Notes under the pieces: model-generated
What the model saw: the letters and a program-made list of their open reading frames with translations, nothing else
Told to the model about the DNA's origin: nothing
Database searches by the model: none
Position numbers and translations under genes: made by a program
Origin: Candidatus Methanoperedens sp.
GTDB taxonomy: Archaea; Halobacteriota; Methanosarcinia; Methanosarcinales; Methanoperedenaceae
Length of the DNA stretch: 64,000 nucleotides
Assembly (NCBI GenBank): GCA_041491305.1
Contig: JBGPUU010000001.1
Span: 15,500 to 79,499, forward strand
Direction: 5' to 3'
Shown here: positions 3,417-61,525 of the stretch, in pieces
Layout of the letters: every line of letters begins with the position of its first letter
How positions within the stretch are numbered: position 1 is the first letter of the stretch

Positions 3417-4519
3417 AACAGAAAACAATCGTACTTATCCTGGTTTTAATTGCAATCGCGGCATCGATCTTTTATTTGGAGTCGCTAAAACCTGTAAGGA
3501 TATCGCCAGGAGAAGCACAGATCAAACCTTTGAACAGTGCAAAAATCGGTAAATACCCTGTGGCAAAGGAAATTGTAAATCCTTCAGGTTTTATCAACAC
3601 CAATAATATCACGGTGGGAGAGCTAATTGGCAAGAAGGTTATACTTATTGATTTCTGGACTTATAGTTGTATTAACTGTCTTCGGACCTTACCCTATCTC
3701 AATAGCTGGTATGAAAAATATAAGGATAAAGGGCTTGTGATTATTGGAGTCCACACACCTGAGTTCCAGTTTGAACAAACCTATGACAATGTGCTTGCTG
3801 CAACGCAAAAATTCGGAATTAAGTATCCTATTGTTTTGGATAATAATTACTCAACATGGGTTGCCTATGGCAATCTTTATTGGCCACATGATTATCTCAT
3901 CGACATAGATGGTTTCATAGTCCATGACCATATTGGCGAGGGAGATTATGAAGCGACTGAGAAAAATATCCAAGATGCTTTAAAAGAAAGGATGGCGGTT
4001 TTAAAAATCAATGAAAATATCAGCACTGAAGTTTCAAAACCTGCCGGGGCTGTTAATGTTGATTTTACGAAAGTAAATAGCCCTGAAATTTATTTCGGTG
4101 CAAGCAAGAATACTTATTTAGGAAATGGAAAATCAAATACGGTTGGTCTTCAAAATCTTTCCGAACCCCCCGAAATTAATACAAATACATTGTATCTTGT
4201 AGGTGATTGGGAATTTCAAGATCAATTTGCTGAAAATAAAAATCCGGGGGCAAAAATCATTTTCCGTTATAACGCAAAAAATGTTAATTTTGTAGCCAGC
4301 GCAACAAATAATGTAACAGTCCAGGTTTTTCGTGATGGCAAGCCGCTTGGTAATGAGTCTGGAAAAGATGTTTCGATAAGAAATGGTTCAAGTTTCGTTA
4401 CTATTAGCGAACCTCGACTCTATACACTTATCGAAGATCCCCAAGGTTATGGTGAACATACACTTGAGATAACTATAGAAAATCTCGGTCTTCGTGCATT
4501 CACTTTCACTTTCGGTTAA
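3413..4519 (+). CDS. Membrane-anchored thioredoxin-like protein with DipZ-type C-terminal domain
   Basis: ATGA overlap with ccdA stop; DFWTYSCINCLRTLP, GVHTPEF, SPEIYFG, AFTFTFG. Confidence 0.85.
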   Translation: MKQKTIVLILVLIAIAASIFYLESLKPVRISPGEAQIKPLNSAKIGKYPVAKEIVNPSGFINTNNITVGELIGKKVILIDFWTYSCINCLRTLPYLNSWYEKYKDKGLVIIGVHTPEFQFEQTYDNVLAATQKFGIKYPIVLDNNYSTWVAYGNLYWPHDYLIDIDGFIVHDHIGEGDYEATEKNIQDALKERMAVLKINENISTEVSKPAGAVNVDFTKVNSPEIYFGASKNTYLGNGKSNTVGLQNLSEPPEINTNTLYLVGDWEFQDQFAENKNPGAKIIFRYNAKNVNFVASATNNVTVQVFRDGKPLGNESGKDVSIRNGSSFVTISEPRLYTLIEDPQGYGEHTLEITIENLGLRAFTFTFG

Positions 4520-4715
4520 TTTTCATAAACCAATGGACTGTTATGAAATAAGTTGAATAAGTTGACAATAATTGGGTACGAAAGTGTTAGCTGCTGAGGA
4601 GAGGAGACAAGAATTTCATCTTATCAATAACATATTTACGCCTCAAAATCCATTATACTTTTGCGGTTAGTTACTGTTAGAAAATTAATTGTATTATATT
4701 ATCAGGAGATTAAAC

Positions 4716-5024
4716 ATGAAACCGATTATCACAGCGGAACTTGAGATTGTCGCTCTGGGCACGGGAAGCACAAGCATGAGTTCTCATATTTCCGAGGCTG
4801 TAAAAGCTCTCGAAAAGTCTGGTATCAAATACCAGTTAACCCCGATGGGGACAGTAATAGAGGTATCTTCCATCGATGAAGCTTTCAATGCAATGAGAGC
4901 AGCGCACGAAGCGGTTATTAAGAAAGGCGTAAAGAGGGTAGTCATGCACATTACGATCGATGACAGAAGGGATGCTCCAAAGGGTATGGACGAGAAAATA
5001 GAATCTGTAAAAAGTAAAATTTAG
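4716..5024 (+). CDS. MTH1187/YkoF-family thiamine-binding protein
   Basis: GGAG before ATG 4716; TSMSSHI...YQLTPMGTVIE...IDDRRD. Confidence 0.85.
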   Translation: MKPIITAELEIVALGTGSTSMSSHISEAVKALEKSGIKYQLTPMGTVIEVSSIDEAFNAMRAAHEAVIKKGVKRVVMHITIDDRRDAPKGMDEKIESVKSKI

Positions 5025-53442: not shown

Positions 53443-54234
53443 CTATGGCAGGTATCTTTTCTTTTCAGGATTGCTGACCGAATGATTAAAAGGTTGCGGG
53501 GGAAGAATGGTAATATTTACAGTGGTATCCGTATGGCATCCTTCGCATGTCCAGTATCCTCTTGAAATGAATCTGCTTGAACCGTTTGCATTGCCCGGTG
53601 TTCGTCCGAATGGCTGGCTAATTCCATAGCTTGAGGACTGGTTGCTGGCCTGTAGATAAAATGGCTGGTGTGCGTTTGACTGGCTTAAATTATATCCTGC
53701 TGCCGTAATGTTGGGGAAACTCCCGAGAATCTGCGGGCTGTTATCGGAATAAATCCTGTTTCCGTGGCACCTGTCGTCATCGCATGTTATGACTGTTATT
53801 CCCGTATGCGTGGTTGCGTTGAAGAGAGTGGCGTTATGGCAAAGCATGCAGATCTCGGCACTATCTATTTGTCCGTTCCTGTTCGCATCAAGGCTGACGT
53901 TTACCAATATATTCAGGTTGCTTGAGTTCTGCCACTTTCGTTCAGAGATGTTCCAGTTCCATACAATATTATTATAATCAGTTATGGAATTTCCATTGTA
54001 ACTTATCCCGCCAATGGAAAGATATGAGGTGTAATTAGCATTTCCAGCCGCAGCTTTATGTTTTTCATAAACATATCCGCTATGCTCAACCTCAGATAAT
54101 ACATCGGTATGGCATTTCTCGCATGAAACACTGCTGTAAAAGGTGTGCTGCCCTGCAAGAAGAGAAACCGTATTGGGCATCACGTATAAACCCAATATCA
54201 TCAAAGCAAAATATAATATGATTTTCCTGTTCAT
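53443..54234 (-). CDS. Tetraheme c-type cytochrome, candidate extracellular filament subunit
   Basis: Signal/TM then SLLAGQHTFY; CEKCH, CMLCH, CDDDRCH (CX4CH), CEGCH. Confidence 0.8.
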   Translation of the reverse strand: MNRKIILYFALMILGLYVMPNTVSLLAGQHTFYSSVSCEKCHTDVLSEVEHSGYVYEKHKAAAGNANYTSYLSIGGISYNGNSITDYNNIVWNWNISERKWQNSSNLNILVNVSLDANRNGQIDSAEICMLCHNATLFNATTHTGITVITCDDDRCHGNRIYSDNSPQILGSFPNITAAGYNLSQSNAHQPFYLQASNQSSSYGISQPFGRTPGNANGSSRFISRGYWTCEGCHTDTTVNITILPPQPFNHSVSNPEKKRYLP

Positions 54235-54238
54235 CTTA

Positions 54239-54676
54239 TCACCCCGAACTGTTTGCAAAGAATTGTTTTGCATGCCTGTACAGGGTCGCAGTATCGCCGG
54301 TTATGTAATGGGCCGACTGGTTCAACCCGCTGACGTTATTGCCGCCGTCATTGTGAATAGTGATATTTCCTGCATCATCATAATTTGAATGGCAGTTGGT
54401 GCAGTAGATATTCTTTGTAAGGTTATGCGCTGCATTGATATTGTAAATTTCAGTACTGTTAGGATTATAGCCATGGCATATACATCCCGCATTGGCGTGG
54501 GCGCTCACGCTCACGATTGATACCTTTGTAGGATGGCATTTTATGCAGAAATCTGTTGCTGTTGTTGTGTTTTTATAGACCGTATGGCTTCCTGAGAATA
54601 TCGCGTATGTTGTAAACATGGAGGCGGCTAACAGTACCCCGAAAATCGCAAACAGTAACAATATTTTCTTATCCAT
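54239..54676 (-). CDS. Small multiheme c-type cytochrome (2 CXXCH + 1 CXCH)
   Basis: Signal/TM then AIFSGSHTVY; CIKCH, CICH, CTNCH. Confidence 0.8.
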   Translation of the reverse strand: MDKKILLLFAIFGVLLAASMFTTYAIFSGSHTVYKNTTTATDFCIKCHPTKVSIVSVSAHANAGCICHGYNPNSTEIYNINAAHNLTKNIYCTNCHSNYDDAGNITIHNDGGNNVSGLNQSAHYITGDTATLYRHAKQFFANSSG

Positions 54677-54683
54677 ATTTACC

Positions 54684-57600
54684 TCATGAATATACCTTGT
54701 CCGGATATGTATGACAGTAATTACAATCTATGGTCTTATTGTAACCATAAGTGGCAATTGCGTTATTATAATATGACGAATCATGGCAGACGGTGCAGTC
54801 AGTGATATTTACAACATTTATTCCATTGTAATTATATGTGCTCGGACTGCTTGTTATGTTATGCCTGTCTGTCTCATTCTTTGGATCACTCTGGTAGGCA
54901 TGGCAGTCCTCGCATGCTTTTCTTGCGCCAATGTTATTATGTCCTTTCGTGTGGCAGTCCTGGCATGCCAATGAACCGTGCGGGCTCCCACTGAACATGG
55001 TCTGGTTCACGAATTTGTCCGGAGAACCTACCCCATTCATGTATTCATAGCTGAAATGGCAGCTTGTGCATAACCCTGTGTTTACATTATGAACAAATTC
55101 TTTTATAGTGCCGTCAGACAGGGATTTACCATGGCAGCCCTTGCACGTGGTATCGTTATAATCAGGTGTCAGGGAATGGTTATAATAGCCGCTCAAATTG
55201 TAAGGTGAATAGATTGAGGAGTTCGTAATCTCAGGAGGGACTGAAAGATTGACGCCGGTAAAGGCCTGAGTCATGTTTATGTAGATCATTCCGCTGTTTG
55301 AATAACCCTGATAGTGACATCCTGCACACCAGTTGCCGTTACCGGAAATCTGGGAATCCATAATGTTACTTCCGCTCCAGTTGGAGGGTCTTCCAAGGCC
55401 TGTTGCATTATGTTTTGAGTCGCCGTGGCAATAATCGCACATACTCTCCTGGCTTGTATTAGTCCAATACCCCTGCTGCGTGCCGTTCCAGAAAGAACTA
55501 TTCAGCGAGCTATTGCCATGCTGGACTGTAGAGACTTTTGGAGGCGTTTTTGACAGCTTTGAATCCAATGTATTTTGCTGGTGGCAATCGGTGCAATTTA
55601 CAGCGCTCTGGTTCCCGGTATCATATGTGCCATCAGGCTTGAGATATGTCATCGGATGGATATTTTTCTTATCCGGACCTGTATGGCATTCCGTGCAATT
55701 GACCGAATTGTTGTGCATTTCTTTATATGTTGTCACCGCTCCGGTATAATTTATGGTGCCATTTGATACATTCAGTCCATGGCAGGCCAGGCAATATGAA
55801 CTGTTTATATTGTTGATTTCAGGTTTAATTAATTGAGCGCCGTGCAGTGATGAATTTGTACTATTGTGACATTCGTTTACACTGCATGACGGGTTTGAGG
55901 AATTGTATCTCAGGCTGTGATTGGAAATGCTACTATTGGCAACGTCCTGGAATACGCTGCTGAATTCACCTGTTGCATTTCTGTGGCAGTATATACAATA
56001 ATCATAACTTCCCGCGGTGATTCCAAAGTTTGACCTGTTAGTGCCGTAATGGTAGAAGCTCGTGTTTCCTCCGCTAACACCAACCCCGTCGCTTGCGAAT
56101 GAGCCATAATCCGTATCATTATTGGGAGTTATCATTCCGGAAACATTTTCATGGCATCCCAGGCAGGAGGCAAGGTCGCTCGTCCGGTTATCCAGAGCAC
56201 TGATATTTGTGCCGTTCCTGTAATGGTTGGATATAATCGTTGCATTGTATGCTCCTGCATTGCTTCCATTTGCTAAGTGGCAGTCCGGGCAGGTATAGGG
56301 TGTATCTCTCTTATCCGGATGTGTGTTGTTAGCTACTGCGTAGCCGCTTGAGTTATGGCATGCCCAGCAGCTTGCGTTTATACCGTAGCCTGAAGCGTTA
56401 TTGCTGTTCAAGTTTGCATGCACGGATATGCTGAAATTCGAGCCGTCTATGTAATTCAGGCCAGTGAAGTTCTGGGGATTGGACTTGTTATGGCAGTCAA
56501 GGCATCCGGGACCGCCGCCGAGCACTACTTCGTTTGAATGGAAATCAACCGGTATGCTCTGGTTTCTGGTATGACAGGCATAGCATGAATCGCTGCTTAT
56601 TGTAAATCTATTCCCGAACATGTTGCTGGCGTTTACCTGCAAAGCATTGCCCCATCCATTTCTTATTGTTTCAACACTCTGGTTGTGGCAGAACAGGCAG
56701 TTCGTGGTAGTGGGCATGCGGTCTATGGGAACTGTCCAGTGAGGTGGATCGTACTTGCCACCTGGTCCATCCGGGTAGTTATACTGTGCATAGTAACCAC
56801 CGAAATTAGATTTGTTGAAATAAGGGGCTGCGTGACAGGTTCCTTCCCCGGTGACTGCATTGTAACTATAGCAAGTTGTGGGATATGTATCAGTGCCGCC
56901 CTGTGAGGGTACGCTTACGTTTGTGCCCGTTATGCTGGAATAATTCGTGTGGGAATAAACATAAGGCAGCGTATTGTTGATGTCGCTTCTCAGGGAATAG
57001 AAAGCTGTCCTGTTCGGTCCTGTGAATATGGAGCTTACGTTTATGTGACAGTTTTCGCAAAGTTTAACACTCTGGAGGTTAGCTGTGATCAAGCTGGGAT
57101 TTCCAGTGCCGTGGCAGGCATAGCAGTCTGACCCGTCCAGGGTGGCTGAATTATTTTCCCAGTCAAATCCTCCGCTTGTCTCCCAGCCGCCGTGTATTAT
57201 CCAGGGAAGCCGCAAGGGTTGGGAGTGTAAGGTTGTTGCATTGGTACCGTTGTGGCAGTTGCCACAGGACTGGGTTTTTGCAGGATGTCTTGTGATAATG
57301 GCGTACCATTCCGTTGCATTTACCTGGGATTTGTGACACAGCGAGCAGTCGATGCTGTTTTTGATAAGGCTTGTATTGGTGGAGTAGTGGGATATATTGG
57401 AATAGATGGCATCTATATTGTCGCCACCATTTATATAAAAACCACTTGTATTAAAACCACCCATGCTTTTTATGTGGCAGGCGGCGCAATCTACCGAAGA
57501 GTTCCAGAAATCCGAGGTTATCTTGTAGATATCCGTGGTATAGTTCGCCGGGATATGATTGTATATTTTCTTTTCAGTCAGGTCATTAATCCTGCCAGCA

Positions 57601-59129
57601 TTGGTGTATGTGAGGTTTACAGTCGCGTTATGGCATGCAACGCAGCCGGTAACTATTATTGTGGTGTTAAACTCTGTGCCGTTGGTATGGCAAGCCCAGC
57701 AGGCTTTGTCCACTAAATCCGAAAGCTCGGTCGTATTGGTTGCATTCCGGTTTAGATATTTATGGGTTGAATTCGAGGACGAATTCATTGATGAAACATC
57801 CACTTTAGCTATCGAATTTGTAGTATTTGATACGCCATGGCAATTAACACAGTCAGAAATACTCCCGCCCGGATGCGATATTACAAGCGATTCCTGCCCT
57901 GATATAGCAAAAGGGGACAGCGAACCGGTGCCGGCGCTTAACGTGCTGTTTGTAATGTCCCGGATAGTTTCAAGCTGCTCCCATTGTGTAACATTCCAGT
58001 GATATATAAAAAGTGTCCTTTCATCTATATTGTTAAGTTCGGCTTTGTTGTAGTGTATTGTTATTTCAGCAGATGAAAAAGATATATTCTCCGCGCTTAT
58101 CTCCACATATTTTACAACCCTTCCCGGAACCGGAACAGACACAGGGTTTCTTTTCCCGAAATCATCGAGAATGACTTTTCCTTTCCCGTGAACTGAAGCA
58201 TTTTCCAGTTTCAGGGCGGCATTTTTTGTGGGGATTGCATCAATTTTAAAGATTTTTGGATTATCCGGTGCTGCACTGGCTACTGGTATAAAAAAATCAA
58301 GGATTGAATAAAAAAATACTGCAGGCCCGGTGATAATCGGGAAAGCCACTCCGATTAGCCCGGAACTGTTTACCTTACGATAAGATTTGACAAGCGAATT
58401 ATTTTCAAATATCTCGACTGTTGAATTGACAAGAGAACCTGATGTATCTATGACATTGATATCCCACTCCGGGGAAGGTGCCACAATCGCAAAGACTGAC
58501 AAGGAATTCACTGTTGTACTAATGACATTATTTGCTACATCGATTTTTGTCGGCAGTTCGTTCCAAACCTGCCCGGCATTATCGTAACTGTAAATAGTAA
58601 GATTATTCACATCCAACCCTTTGACTTCCGTATCAGTGAATTTTATTGATATATCAACGTTAGAAAAAGAAACGCCGCCGGAATTGACTTCTACATACTT
58701 TACCGGCGTGCCGGGCGCTGATACATTTACGCTCCCGGGCTGGTTAATGCCGTAATTTTCCAGCACCACCCTTCCTTTTGGTGATTCCCCTGAAATCCGA
58801 AGATTGATTGATAATCCCTTGTTGGCAAAATCATCATAACTGATTACAGCGCCAGGAATTCCGTGCCAGCTTATAAGATTGACATTCGGTCTTGGCGGTC
58901 CGCTTGATACCCCTTCCCCGCTTAACGATATTGCACCGGTTAACGGATTTCCTGCGGCATCTGTGAATGTTATCTCGCCGCTTGTTTTTAGCGCTTCGGT
59001 CCGGGTTGGTATTGGAGGGAAATACAATAAAGCCGCAGCTATACCTGATAAAACTACAAACACAAGTATTATGAGCCTGGTTTTAGAGAGCCCTGCTCTA
59101 TCCCGTAAAATATCCATTTTTTTGACCAT
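54684..59129 (-). CDS. Large multiheme cytochrome c (26 CXXCH + CX11CH + CX4CH) with two N-terminal PGF-pre-PGF-like domains
   Basis: Motifs counted by hand; N-terminal TM segment; duplicated VKYVE...W..L.T......SLS.FAI domains. Confidence 0.9.
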   Translation of the reverse strand: MVKKMDILRDRAGLSKTRLIILVFVVLSGIAAALLYFPPIPTRTEALKTSGEITFTDAAGNPLTGAISLSGEGVSSGPPRPNVNLISWHGIPGAVISYDDFANKGLSINLRISGESPKGRVVLENYGINQPGSVNVSAPGTPVKYVEVNSGGVSFSNVDISIKFTDTEVKGLDVNNLTIYSYDNAGQVWNELPTKIDVANNVISTTVNSLSVFAIVAPSPEWDINVIDTSGSLVNSTVEIFENNSLVKSYRKVNSSGLIGVAFPIITGPAVFFYSILDFFIPVASAAPDNPKIFKIDAIPTKNAALKLENASVHGKGKVILDDFGKRNPVSVPVPGRVVKYVEISAENISFSSAEITIHYNKAELNNIDERTLFIYHWNVTQWEQLETIRDITNSTLSAGTGSLSPFAISGQESLVISHPGGSISDCVNCHGVSNTTNSIAKVDVSSMNSSSNSTHKYLNRNATNTTELSDLVDKACWACHTNGTEFNTTIIVTGCVACHNATVNLTYTNAGRINDLTEKKIYNHIPANYTTDIYKITSDFWNSSVDCAACHIKSMGGFNTSGFYINGGDNIDAIYSNISHYSTNTSLIKNSIDCSLCHKSQVNATEWYAIITRHPAKTQSCGNCHNGTNATTLHSQPLRLPWIIHGGWETSGGFDWENNSATLDGSDCYACHGTGNPSLITANLQSVKLCENCHINVSSIFTGPNRTAFYSLRSDINNTLPYVYSHTNYSSITGTNVSVPSQGGTDTYPTTCYSYNAVTGEGTCHAAPYFNKSNFGGYYAQYNYPDGPGGKYDPPHWTVPIDRMPTTTNCLFCHNQSVETIRNGWGNALQVNASNMFGNRFTISSDSCYACHTRNQSIPVDFHSNEVVLGGGPGCLDCHNKSNPQNFTGLNYIDGSNFSISVHANLNSNNASGYGINASCWACHNSSGYAVANNTHPDKRDTPYTCPDCHLANGSNAGAYNATIISNHYRNGTNISALDNRTSDLASCLGCHENVSGMITPNNDTDYGSFASDGVGVSGGNTSFYHYGTNRSNFGITAGSYDYCIYCHRNATGEFSSVFQDVANSSISNHSLRYNSSNPSCSVNECHNSTNSSLHGAQLIKPEINNINSSYCLACHGLNVSNGTINYTGAVTTYKEMHNNSVNCTECHTGPDKKNIHPMTYLKPDGTYDTGNQSAVNCTDCHQQNTLDSKLSKTPPKVSTVQHGNSSLNSSFWNGTQQGYWTNTSQESMCDYCHGDSKHNATGLGRPSNWSGSNIMDSQISGNGNWCAGCHYQGYSNSGMIYINMTQAFTGVNLSVPPEITNSSIYSPYNLSGYYNHSLTPDYNDTTCKGCHGKSLSDGTIKEFVHNVNTGLCTSCHFSYEYMNGVGSPDKFVNQTMFSGSPHGSLACQDCHTKGHNNIGARKACEDCHAYQSDPKNETDRHNITSSPSTYNYNGINVVNITDCTVCHDSSYYNNAIATYGYNKTIDCNYCHTYPDKVYS

Positions 59130-59289: not shown

Positions 59290-60126
59290 TCACGATGTTA
59301 AATAATCCGTATGACGTCCGCTGTATACATACCCGACACCGAATGCGGAAAATGCAAGTACGAAGATGCTGAAAATAATCAGCCATGCAATCCTTTTTCC
59401 GGTCCATCCCGCGTTCATCCGCAGGTGCAGGCAAATCCCGTATGTGAACCATGAAATTAAAGACCATGTCTCGATGGGGTCCCAGCCCCAGTACCTGCCC
59501 CATGTCTGGTTTGCCCAAATTGCTCCTGCCGCTATCATTATAGTAAGGGCGAAAAATCCCATCGCCACGAAATGATACATAAGATCGTCCATTGTTCTTA
59601 ATCCGGGAAGCCTTTCGTAAAATGAATCCTGGATTCCGGTATTTAACTGCTTCTCTTTCAATATATAAAGAGCAGCAGTGGCTGCCGCAACCATTACCGA
59701 CCCGAAGCCAAGGCTTGCAAAACCTACATGGGCTATCAGCCAGTAACTCTGGAGAGAAGCCGGTATCATCTGGATATCCCTTGAATAAGTCGAACCTATA
59801 GCCATCAGCAAAAAGGATGCAGGCAGCACTATAAATCCTGCAATCTTAATCTTTTCATATTTTTGCTGCGAAAATAAGAATATAACTACTGAAAACCATG
59901 CATATTTTGATAAAACCTCGTACATACTGATGTAGGGACCGTGCCCGGTTTCTATCCACCGAAGGGCTATGGAAACACTGTGGAACAACAAGCCGGCAAA
60001 CGCGGTACTGACTGCAAGATTTATTCTTTCTTCTTTCTTGAAAACAAGGCAGTACAGGTATATAGCCGAACTGAGCGCATAAAGCACTGCAGCGGCCACG
60101 TAGATAATCCATTCAGTCTGTGCCAT
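59290..60126 (-). CDS. ccsA: Cytochrome c synthase CcsA/ResC (System II)
   Basis: WWD domain GAIWANQTWGRYWGWDPIETWSLISW; conserved His (HVGFA, SGRH). Confidence 0.92.
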   Translation of the reverse strand: MAQTEWIIYVAAAVLYALSSAIYLYCLVFKKEERINLAVSTAFAGLLFHSVSIALRWIETGHGPYISMYEVLSKYAWFSVVIFLFSQQKYEKIKIAGFIVLPASFLLMAIGSTYSRDIQMIPASLQSYWLIAHVGFASLGFGSVMVAAATAALYILKEKQLNTGIQDSFYERLPGLRTMDDLMYHFVAMGFFALTIMIAAGAIWANQTWGRYWGWDPIETWSLISWFTYGICLHLRMNAGWTGKRIAWLIIFSIFVLAFSAFGVGYVYSGRHTDYLTS

Positions 60127-61525
60127 GTAACCTCTTCATTTTATCGACAATACCTGAATATTCTTCTTCATATAAAGACCTGAACTTATCAGCCCGCCCC
60201 CCGATATAAATCTCCATTGCATCGGAATCACTGACAACCTCAACCCATATCCTCTTAGGGATTATAAAGAAAGATAACATGAGGCTGAATATCATAAATC
60301 CGACTCCCGCATACACAAGAAGCGTCCCGTCATCCTTCACCACGTAGAAATTACTCCAGTATTTTATATCATAAAATCCCAGGGTTCTGTCATAGCCAAG
60401 GTAATTATCGTGTATTTTTATTGTATCATTCAGCCTGAGCGTACCATCGTATATCTGCTTTCCCCCGTCAAATATCCTCAAAAACATGATTGGTGTTTTT
60501 TCGGCTTCGGATTCCATTAGTTGTCCTGTTAAAGGCGCAGTCATGTATACCATCAATCCCCCTTCAAGACCCGTATTCCCCATTTGGAAAGATGAGACAT
60601 ACCTCCCGCTGTTATCGAGGTCTTGTGCGGTTATATACGAGCCGGAATATACCGTCCCGTCCGGATTCTTCAACAACAGCAGCGGCGCAAGACCATAGAC
60701 ATTCCCAAGAAACGTGTATCCATTATAAGTCATCATGTGATTTGAAAATACAATATCAGTTTTCATCTTCTGGCCATTCTCTATTATAGAAAGCTCGCCT
60801 GCTGCTCCGCGAGGCGTATTTGTTTCATCCTTGTAATCAGGGAAGAATTTCAGAAGTGAAATACCGAATCCCTGGTGGTTTTCGTTAAAAAAATGACCCT
60901 CGTTGATAAACATATAGTTCGCGTGCTCTTCTTCCAGGGTCTGCCCTTCTATTAATCGCATATCCCCTTCCATCCTGCCCAAACTTCCGTAAACCACAGC
61001 TATTATGATGAAAAGTATGCTGATGTGAAACAGCGATGTGCCCAGTATCCCGAACCTGTTTTTTTCCGCAAGAATGCAATTCCCCTGCTGCCGTACCTTA
61101 TACCCTGCTGACTTAAGTAAAGAACCCGTTTCAGAAATAACACTATTGCTATCTTTTTTTGTTTTAATTACCGAGCTGTTCTCAAGTCCTGTAATGTATG
61201 CCTTTTTCTGGAATTGCTGGGCGTTGAGCCTTCGAAAAGCGCTTTTCAGCATCGTTCTTGTGCAGAAAAGAGTATTAACGACAAGGAGCGCCACTATGCT
61301 TAAAAATATAACTGATGAATAAAGATGGGTAAAACCGATTTTCTCAAAGGTTTCAGCCTGCCCCGGATTCGTAGATTTCCATTTATCATATACGTCAGGT
61401 TTGAGCTGCGATTGCTGGGGTACATAGGTCCCGATTATCGAAAATACGATAATGAGAGTAATAAGAACTATCGCAAGTTTTCTGGAGCTAAAAAAAGTAG
61501 CGATTTTCCCGGTACTAAAATCCAT
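60113..61525 (-). CDS. resB: Cytochrome c biogenesis protein ResB/CcsB (System II)
   Basis: SSRKLA...SIIGTYVPQ, NTLFCT, FHISIL, large extracytoplasmic domain, DDGTLLVYAG...KRIWV; overlaps ccsA. Confidence 0.88.
   Translation of the reverse strand: MDFSTGKIATFFSSRKLAIVLITLIIVFSIIGTYVPQQSQLKPDVYDKWKSTNPGQAETFEKIGFTHLYSSVIFLSIVALLVVNTLFCTRTMLKSAFRRLNAQQFQKKAYITGLENSSVIKTKKDSNSVISETGSLLKSAGYKVRQQGNCILAEKNRFGILGTSLFHISILFIIIAVVYGSLGRMEGDMRLIEGQTLEEEHANYMFINEGHFFNENHQGFGISLLKFFPDYKDETNTPRGAAGELSIIENGQKMKTDIVFSNHMMTYNGYTFLGNVYGLAPLLLLKNPDGTVYSGSYITAQDLDNSGRYVSSFQMGNTGLEGGLMVYMTAPLTGQLMESEAEKTPIMFLRIFDGGKQIYDGTLRLNDTIKIHDNYLGYDRTLGFYDIKYWSNFYVVKDDGTLLVYAGVGFMIFSLMLSFFIIPKRIWVEVVSDSDAMEIYIGGRADKFRSLYEEEYSGIVDKMKRLHGTD

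Follow-up and report, generated by a model that had tools for sequence, protein, structure and literature searches.

In a 64,000-nucleotide stretch of Candidatus Methanoperedens sp. DNA (contig JBGPUU010000001.1, positions 15,500 to 79,499 of the forward strand; hereafter the window), two adjacent genes on the minus strand encode small multihaem cytochromes related to AvECN, an extracellular cytochrome nanowire (ECN) subunit of Archaeoglobus veneficus whose structure was reportedly described by Baquero et al. in Cell in 2023. Gene A is a 145-residue open reading frame (ORF), gene B is the ORF downstream of it and the last gene of a minus-strand run, and the gene upstream of A encodes a 1481-residue multihaem cytochrome (MHC). 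We are highly confident that A and B belong to the AvECN superfamily and are located outside the cell. On balance, we also favour the fuller reading that they are exported c-type cytochromes of this superfamily, predicted to be heavily N-glycosylated, which form an obligate two-gene module. Positions below are those of the window, and the two genes are as follows.

54239 to 54676, minus strand: gene A, small cytochrome with two CXXCH motifs and one CXCH motif, 145 residues (ORF and family alignment)
53443 to 54234, minus strand: gene B, tetrahaem cytochrome, probably a divergent AvECN-family member, 263 residues (true start at M14 of a 276-residue ORF)

As listed, the ORF of B covers 53443-54273 and encodes 276 residues. 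Its start was reset to M14 (MNKKI...), which is the start used by 71 of 71 homologues; therefore the real B should comprise 53443-54234 and 263 residues, and it does not overlap A. The named homologues of both A and B come from metagenome-assembled genomes of Methanoperedens, the ANME-2d lineage.

A reading made from the letters alone (the sequence-only reading) had proposed these proteins as nanowire subunits after the example of AvECN, PcECN and OmcE. In comparison of B with all Protein Data Bank (PDB) chains, a single hit was obtained, chain A of 8E5G (phmmer E=4e-5; B-family profile E=3.8e-9), and the match ran from the leader through the GQH block to the first haem. The entry 8E5G is listed as AvECN of A. 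veneficus (UniProt F2KMU8), and 8E5F as the Pyrobaculum wire PcECN. The proposal was thus partly supported with respect to AvECN, for B and more weakly for A, but not for the other two wires: single-sequence and profile searches of all PDB chains revealed no kinship to PcECN (8E5F) or OmcE (7TFS). The same searches of A returned nothing relevant, and neither sequence and profile searches of the PDB nor Foldseek found relatives of A or B in OmcS (6EF8) or OmcZ (7LQ5/8D9M). OmcE and OmcS of Geobacter sulfurreducens and PcECN are insulated haem wires built from small multihaem subunits, and in OmcS and OmcE a His of one subunit is described as ligating a haem of the next. Their likeness to A and B is therefore one of proposed working principle, not of family membership.

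To relate A and B to the AvECN family as a whole, we used alignment fragments as queries, retrieved AvECN itself (P0193) together with 170 relatives and built a family alignment from these. By hhalign, the B family matched the AvECN family at 99.8% (E 8e-28) over 61 N-terminal columns only, and the A family matched it at 96.6% (E 5e-10) over 101 columns. Pairwise BLASTP between B and AvECN likewise aligned only 54 residues, or ~20% coverage. We then cut the first 55 residues from both profiles and repeated the hhalign comparison. The body of B still matched the body of AvECN (94.4%, E 8.7e-8, 81 columns), with CMLCH paired to CMACH (haem 3), AAGY to an invariant AGGF, and CEGCHT.V.I to CIACHT.V.I (haem 4), while bodies of unrelated multihaem proteins, used as a negative control, reached only E ~0.01-0.02 over 14 columns or fewer. 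Because both the N-terminal and the body alignments are significant, we read B as a divergent full-length AvECN homologue. The two proteins are also alike in length (262 residues in AvECN and 263 in B) and in plan: each opens with a leader and an arm of the form P-x-T-x-S / L-F-x-G-Q-H-x-(W/F)-Y, whose His never varies; the first haem motif comes immediately next, and there are four predicted haem sites in all and about four conserved, putatively distal His. Haems 2 and 4 of B align with haems 3 and 4 of AvECN. They differ in that B appears from the alignment to lack a counterpart of AvECN haem 2 and to carry instead an extra, invariant CX4CH haem site and a beta domain of ~60 residues with an EF-hand-like loop, and in that B is accompanied by the small partner A. 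On these comparisons, B can credibly be regarded as a divergent subunit of the nanowire family. A pattern-seeded scan detected B-type (CDDDRCH) genes in none of the Archaeoglobus genomes.

The part that A, B and AvECN share most clearly is the N-terminus, which can be divided into a leader and an arm.

54163 to 54234, minus strand: leader of B, residues 1-24, ending P20-x-T22-x-S24 (P20-N-T22-V-S24), a predicted signal-peptidase I site; P20 is invariant in the B family
54136 to 54162, minus strand: arm of B, LLAGQHTFY, with the invariant His30 (codon 54145-54147; family alignment)
54602 to 54676, minus strand: leader of A, residues 1-25, ending T23-Y-A25, a predicted cleavage site (from the alignment; no Pro in this clade)
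54575 to 54601, minus strand: arm of A, IFSGSHTVY, with the invariant His31 (codon 54584-54586; family alignment)

The N-termini of A and B align with each other by BLASTP (E=7e-7 over 61 residues) and by profile-profile comparison (96.9%, E=1.6e-10), so the shared block exceeds chance. The His block after the leader helix that the sequence-only reading had pointed out is accordingly real and can be written x-F/L-x-G-(Q/S)-H-T-x-Y. In the AvECN family the corresponding invariant residues are P22, T24, S26, F28, G30, Q31, H32, W34 and Y35. The arm of A is a relaxed version of the AvECN form, with T-x-A followed by I-F-S-G-S-H-T-x-Y, and the Pro of the leader is restored in more distant members of the A family. 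Signal peptidase I sites have a helix-breaking Pro at -5 and small residues at -3 and -1. Given this pattern and the homology to the AvECN leader, the block shared by A, B and AvECN looks like a signal-peptidase I site, and after the predicted cut the invariant His would be the sixth residue of the mature protein in each of the three families. This His is conserved without exception (H30 of B in 71/71 sequences, H31 of A in 73/73, and its AvECN-family counterpart in 44/44).

The four haems of AvECN are described in the literature as bis-His. Since H32, H108, H165 and H200 are the only four (near-)invariant non-motif His in the AvECN family, H32 is very probably a haem ligand. The arm His of A and B is probably a haem ligand too. 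According to a review (PMC12203936), the distal His of three of the four AvECN haems is supplied by another subunit, and this makes it plausible by analogy that the arm His ligates a haem of a neighbouring subunit. The earlier proposal of an N-terminal His as inter-subunit ligand therefore stands in part: the residue is invariant and would be required to complete the set of distal ligands, but its inter-subunit role is only plausible. In the AlphaFold2 monomer model the arm of B (residues 21-35) is the least confident part, with a predicted local distance difference test score (pLDDT) <50.

The haem-binding motifs were then assigned as follows.

54109 to 54123, minus strand: B haem site 1, CEKCH, aligning with AvECN haem 1
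53836 to 53850, minus strand: B haem site 2, CMLCH, aligning with AvECN haem 3 (CMACH)
53764 to 53784, minus strand: B haem site 3, CDDDRCH, an invariant CX4CH motif opposite a gap in AvECN
53533 to 53547, minus strand: B haem site 4, CEGCH, aligning with AvECN haem 4 (CIACH)
54533 to 54547, minus strand: A haem site 1, CIKCH (family alignment)
54473 to 54484, minus strand: atypical CXCH motif of A, CICH, in the column of AvECN haem 2 (CGECH)
54389 to 54403, minus strand: A haem site 3, CTNCH (family alignment)

Only three of the B motifs and two of the A motifs are canonical CXXCH, and the counts of four and three haem sites given earlier hold only if the atypical CX4CH of B and CXCH of A bind haem. 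Both atypical motifs are fully conserved (CX4CH in 71/71 and CXCH in 73/73 sequences). In the superfamily alignment, AvECN haem 2 and the CXCH of A share one column. This column holds CGPCH in one member of the A family (P0317), CSCH (P0335), CFCH (P0334) or CDCH (P0257, from ANME-1, a group of anaerobic methanotrophic archaea) in members with a typical AvECN-type arm, and canonical CXXCH in further members of the superfamily. As aligned, the spacer in the haem-2 column thus has either one or two residues, with changes in several lineages, yet it is fixed within the A family. From this switch in spacing across lineages together with the invariance within A, we argue that the site is functional: it seems likely that the CXCH of A is a working haem site with contracted spacing. 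No report of a CXCH c-type haem site was found by full-text literature search, and we know of no natural precedent for haem attachment to this motif. As a separate observation, a 196-residue multihaem cytochrome of A. veneficus (P0313, L074 11861-12451), encoded downstream of AvECN and its paralogue, likewise contains the CXCH spacing (as CRCH), and a His lies close behind its predicted cleavage site, ALSA|QQH; as a homologue of A it was ruled out (hhalign 13.9%).

Conserved His outside the motifs are H30, H59, H189 and H251 (each 71/71) and H143 (67/71) in B, and H31, H60, H84 and H123 (each 73/73) and H108 (64/73) in A. We gave up an argument that surplus His mark A as a cap: a fifth, semi-conserved His (H64, 36/44) exists in the AvECN family as well, and parity between His and haems therefore does not discriminate.

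To determine whether A and B are inherited together, both families were sought by whole-genome searches in 151 Methanosarcinales genomes. Both genes were present in 53 genomes, B only in 6, A only in 2 and neither in 90 (Fisher p = 3e-31, uncorrected for phylogeny). The genomes with a single gene (8 of 61 carriers) mostly represent incomplete genomes, contig ends or a fusion. In ~10-14 genomes A and B lie on different contigs and both are retained. At ~36 of 60 loci of other genomes B directly follows an A-family gene in the same orientation. The A family has few members: a search of 1.84 billion proteins yielded just 31 representatives at 50% identity (E <= 1e-3). These results indicate that A and B probably work as a pair in extracellular electron transport, and we consider it reasonably probable that A is a physical partner of B.

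The sequence-only reading had placed the pair at the end of an operon for a cytochrome with about 28 haems, and the motifs of MHC, 26 CXXCH and one CX4CH, are consistent with that count. The minus-strand gene order in the window is ResB-like, CcsA-like, a 160-nucleotide gap, MHC, A and B; B closes the run, and the gene beyond it converges from the opposite strand. The genes upstream of A are the following.

54684 to 59129, minus strand: MHC, 1481 residues, 26 CXXCH and one CX4CH, with PGF-pre-PGF-like N-terminal domains (ORF and domain search)
59290 to 60126, minus strand: CcsA-like haem-attachment gene, by annotation, given for context only
60113 to 61525, minus strand: ResB-like haem-attachment gene, by annotation, given for context only

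The MHC stop codon is separated from the ATG of A by 7 nucleotides (TGAGGTAAATATG), and the stop codon of A from the ATG of B by 4 nucleotides (GGGGTGATAAGATG). Both junctions contain GGTGA/GAGGT-like purine runs resembling Shine-Dalgarno ribosome-binding sites. Because the junctions are short and each has such a run, MHC, A and B are very probably carried on one transcript and coupled in translation. The CcsA-like and ResB-like genes were rejected as dedicated maturation partners of the atypical motifs, because within flanks of up to 8 kb they adjoin A and B solely in the window and in its closest relative (L004).

An MHC orthologue precedes A and B in those Methanoperedenaceae loci whose flanks extend far enough upstream. 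In the ANME-2c genome E20, A and B overlap by 4 nucleotides in a bicistron of their own, with no cytochrome nearby. At other ANME-2 loci, B is followed by a 15-haem MHC of ~1600 residues and A is found elsewhere in the genome. MHC is thus a lineage-specific neighbour and not a constant part of the module.

The density of N-x-S/T sequons per 100 residues is 4.8 in A, 4.6 in B and 5.6 in MHC; among neighbouring genes it is 7.3 in a surface glycoprotein and 0.2-0.8 in cytoplasmic or membrane proteins. The values of A and B fit those expected of extracellular archaeal glycoproteins. The solved OmcZ-type wire of Methanoperedens is heavily N-glycosylated.

The AlphaFold2 models, which contain no haems, reached pLDDT 69 and a predicted template modelling score (pTM) of 0.67 for B, and pLDDT 62 and pTM 0.37 for A. 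A beta-rich insertion in B (residues ~60-125) was modelled at pLDDT 86-96, and at its end, directly before haem site 2, lies one further feature.

53854 to 53889, minus strand: B residues 116-127, EF-hand-like loop DANRNGQIDSAE (weak EF-hand_1 match in Pfam and a weak dockerin-like PDB match)

The loop DANRNGQIDSAE fits the spacing of EF-hand/dockerin-type calcium loops, D-x-N-x-N-G-x-I-x-x-x-E; its D116 is invariant, and the loop is deleted in several family members. Pfam and NCBIfam searches of A and B yielded only sub-threshold generic cytochrome matches.

Taken together, we propose the following mechanism. A and B would be exported by the Sec pathway and then cut by signal peptidase I after P-x-T-x-S in B or T-x-A in A. 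This cut would free an arm, (L/I)-(F/L)-x-G-(Q/S)-H, with the invariant His at its sixth position, and that His would act as a distal ligand, most likely of a haem in the neighbouring subunit. Exchange of His between subunits might join them head to tail so that their haems form an unbroken chain, as in AvECN. In such an assembly B would more likely be the repeating unit, and A, which is about half the size of B and has three motifs including CXCH, would be a dedicated partner, which might co-polymerise with B, nucleate the polymer or form its base, or cap it. In Methanoperedens, the module is predicted to be translationally coupled to the giant surface MHC, which would probably supply it with electrons. 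Whether B assembles into a polymer is, judged from its homology, an evenly balanced question. The cap role given to A earlier is doubtful as a specific assignment, and the anchor role given to MHC is putative.

Several observations weigh against this reading. A and B are present in 19 of the sampled Methanoperedens genomes and absent from at least 20, and the module is thus accessory within the genus. Beyond the N-terminal module, the body of A has no significant similarity to AvECN (hhalign 2.5%), and A can be securely related to AvECN only through its leader, arm and haem 1. The leader/arm module also heads larger proteins, including an 8-haem protein with PKD domains. A segment matching the N-terminus of B (profile positions ~3-160, extending to 212 in G133) also forms the fused start of larger ORFs in further Methanoperedens genomes, at G133:C34:14602-15246 (1064 residues), G101:C39:1583-2086 (700 residues) and G054:C53:1399-1902 (639 residues). 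The module by itself is therefore no mark of a homopolymer subunit. In this clade the leader of A lacks the Pro and is predicted to form a 25-residue helix (residues 3-27 in the AlphaFold2 model), and A may stay anchored in the membrane by an uncleaved leader. In the only experimental study of Methanoperedens filaments (PMC13748539), the dominant solved wire is OmcZ-type and the candidate ECN is closer to AvECN than B is. Finally, the structural match expected by the sequence-only reading did not appear: Foldseek against the PDB returned nothing for either haem-free, weak model, not even 8E5G (best E 2.8 for B and 7.9 for A, no positive control). Although this null result is formally the outcome that was to refute the nanowire proposal, we judge it not decisive, because the models are poor and lack haems, AvECN-type subunits are reported to need ligands from their neighbours, and no positive control was available.

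The same evidence can be arranged differently. A and B could form a discrete, non-filamentous hetero-oligomer, such as a seven-haem heterodimer made by reciprocal exchange of the His arms, which would relay electrons over a short range from membrane donors to large surface cytochromes. Strict co-occurrence and translational coupling are as expected of such a complex, as are the frequent position of the pair upstream or downstream of giant MHCs and the divergence of the B body from AvECN (haem 2 missing, an extra haem and the beta domain), and no reported filament contains A or B. Nevertheless, the haems of AvECN are, in the account of a review, largely completed by neighbouring subunits (PMC12203936), which favours an open-ended assembly, and the ANME-2c pair has no MHC neighbour. 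The present data do not separate closed from open oligomers, and we hold the closed form to be rather unlikely. Co-occurrence could alternatively reflect shared regulation or inheritance of two separate homopolymeric wires, with A and B as paralogues that serve different acceptors or are used under different conditions. The arm module is present in both, A. veneficus has a second ECN paralogue beside the gene for the solved AvECN filament subunit, and Geobacter makes several distinct wires. This explanation is improbable, as genomes retain both genes even where these are unlinked, no more than 8 of 61 genomes (mostly incomplete) have one alone, and A is about half the size of B with a body that shows no significant similarity to AvECN.

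A third interpretation is that A, and perhaps B, are membrane-anchored quinol dehydrogenases like NapC, CymA or NrfH that admit electrons to MHC from the membrane side. It draws on a weak match of A to the Pfam NapC/NirT N-terminal family (PF03264, E 0.0076, 16.4 bits), on the long predicted N-terminal helix of A, and on one homologue labelled 'nitrate/TMAO reductase-like tetraheme cytochrome c subunit' by the Joint Genome Institute (JGI). However, the PF03264 score lies below the cut-off of 24.1 and the match covers only the helix and the first CXXCH; A scores 11.5 against a cut-off of 310.6 for TIGR02161, and B matches neither family. The identical JGI label is attached to AvECN-family proteins (P0202, P0244). 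In addition, A has three motifs rather than four, the sequon density is that of extracellular glycoproteins, and the leader has its homologue in a protein of sheared extracellular filaments. We therefore consider a quinol dehydrogenase very improbable, and a NapC/NrfH identity of A or B was rejected on the scores below curated cut-offs and on the same weak annotation of AvECN-family proteins.

Related cytochromes of these archaea have been published. Chadwick et al. 2022 (PMC9012536) described a widespread and highly transcribed group of small MHCs in ANME, as well as ANME multihaem clusters with a dedicated signal peptidase and an '8x TMH' protein. In several loci, an S26 peptidase and a multi-transmembrane (multi-TM) protein likewise flank B-family or ECN-like genes; the A-B pair and its atypical motifs were not singled out in that work. 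Suzuki et al. 2024 (PMC11176372) described MmcX of 'Ca. Serpentinarchaeum' Met12, in a clade that takes in Methanoperedenaceae proteins with 3-5 haem motifs, and according to a 2026 review AvECN homologues occur in Methanoperedenaceae. Wissink et al. 2026 (PMC13748539) reported the four-haem ECN^Mv (DOEMACJB_01452) of 'Ca. Methanoperedens vercellensis', with 29% identity and 86% coverage to AvECN, and also saw a 'thicker' filament. ECN^Mv and MmcX resemble B in being four-haem cytochromes of the AvECN superfamily; they come from related archaea, and both have been proposed to build nanowires. B is distinct from ECN^Mv, which is nearer to AvECN than B is (86% versus ~20% coverage), and neither Wissink et al. 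2026 nor Suzuki et al. 2024 described the A-B pair. An electrode transcriptome (PMC10874420) highlights clusters other than A-B and could not be mapped to A or B. AvECN homologues in Methanoperedens are thus already published. What is new here is the pairing of A with B, the rearranged haem set of B and the CXCH site, of which our literature search found no description.

ECN-type genes also occur in larger clusters. In six Methanoperedens loci (L005, L007, L009, L050, L053 and L054), A and B are followed by an 11-12-haem cytochrome of ~320-340 residues on the opposite strand and a four-haem protein of ~205-246 residues, and in L050, L053 and L054 an S26 peptidase follows as well. In those genomes A and B are part of a larger ECN-type cluster; in the source genome of the window there are two clusters on separate contigs. 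The second, on contig C55 (L073 198-5948), contains closer AvECN-like genes than B: a 413-residue five-haem protein (LPSTVALFAGQH...), a 206-residue six-haem protein and a 455-residue eight-haem protein with PKD repeats, whose arm is again the one described above (PNTVSLFADTH...). Next come an S26 signal peptidase (4036-4731) and a 445-residue multi-TM protein without a Pfam match, a pair that corresponds to the published 'signal peptidase + 8x TMH' of ANME cytochrome clusters (PMC9012536). Such a peptidase, which fits the proposed processing of A and B, adjoins B or ECN-like genes at other loci and on C55, and the window's own cluster has none. In Methanocellales, the order is an AvECN-like four-haem gene, an S26 signal peptidase, B and a multi-TM protein, with no A; at L017 5982-9678 (a Methanocellales metagenome-assembled genome) this compact cluster starts with a 141-residue unknown protein and then encodes a 190-residue AvECN-like four-haem cytochrome, possibly of MmcX type, the peptidase, a CDDDRCH B-family cytochrome and a 305-residue multi-TM protein, and no A-family gene is present.

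The solved cytochrome wires to date are described as homopolymers, and the OmcZ-type wire is the only one solved so far for ANME. It is a distinctly unlikely extension of our reading that A and B constitute the first two-component (heteromeric) cytochrome nanowire, in which B would form the conducting polymer and A would start, terminate or alternate with it through its His arm and a contracted CXCH haem site. If the CXCH of A does bind haem, the known spacings for haem attachment would be extended, and counting of CXXCH motifs would miss haems in these genomes. How anaerobic methane oxidisers export electrons is a central question of their biology, and the A-B pair, inherited jointly across ANME-2a/c/d and relatives, offers a testable candidate for a subunit-plus-accessory system within the AvECN superfamily.

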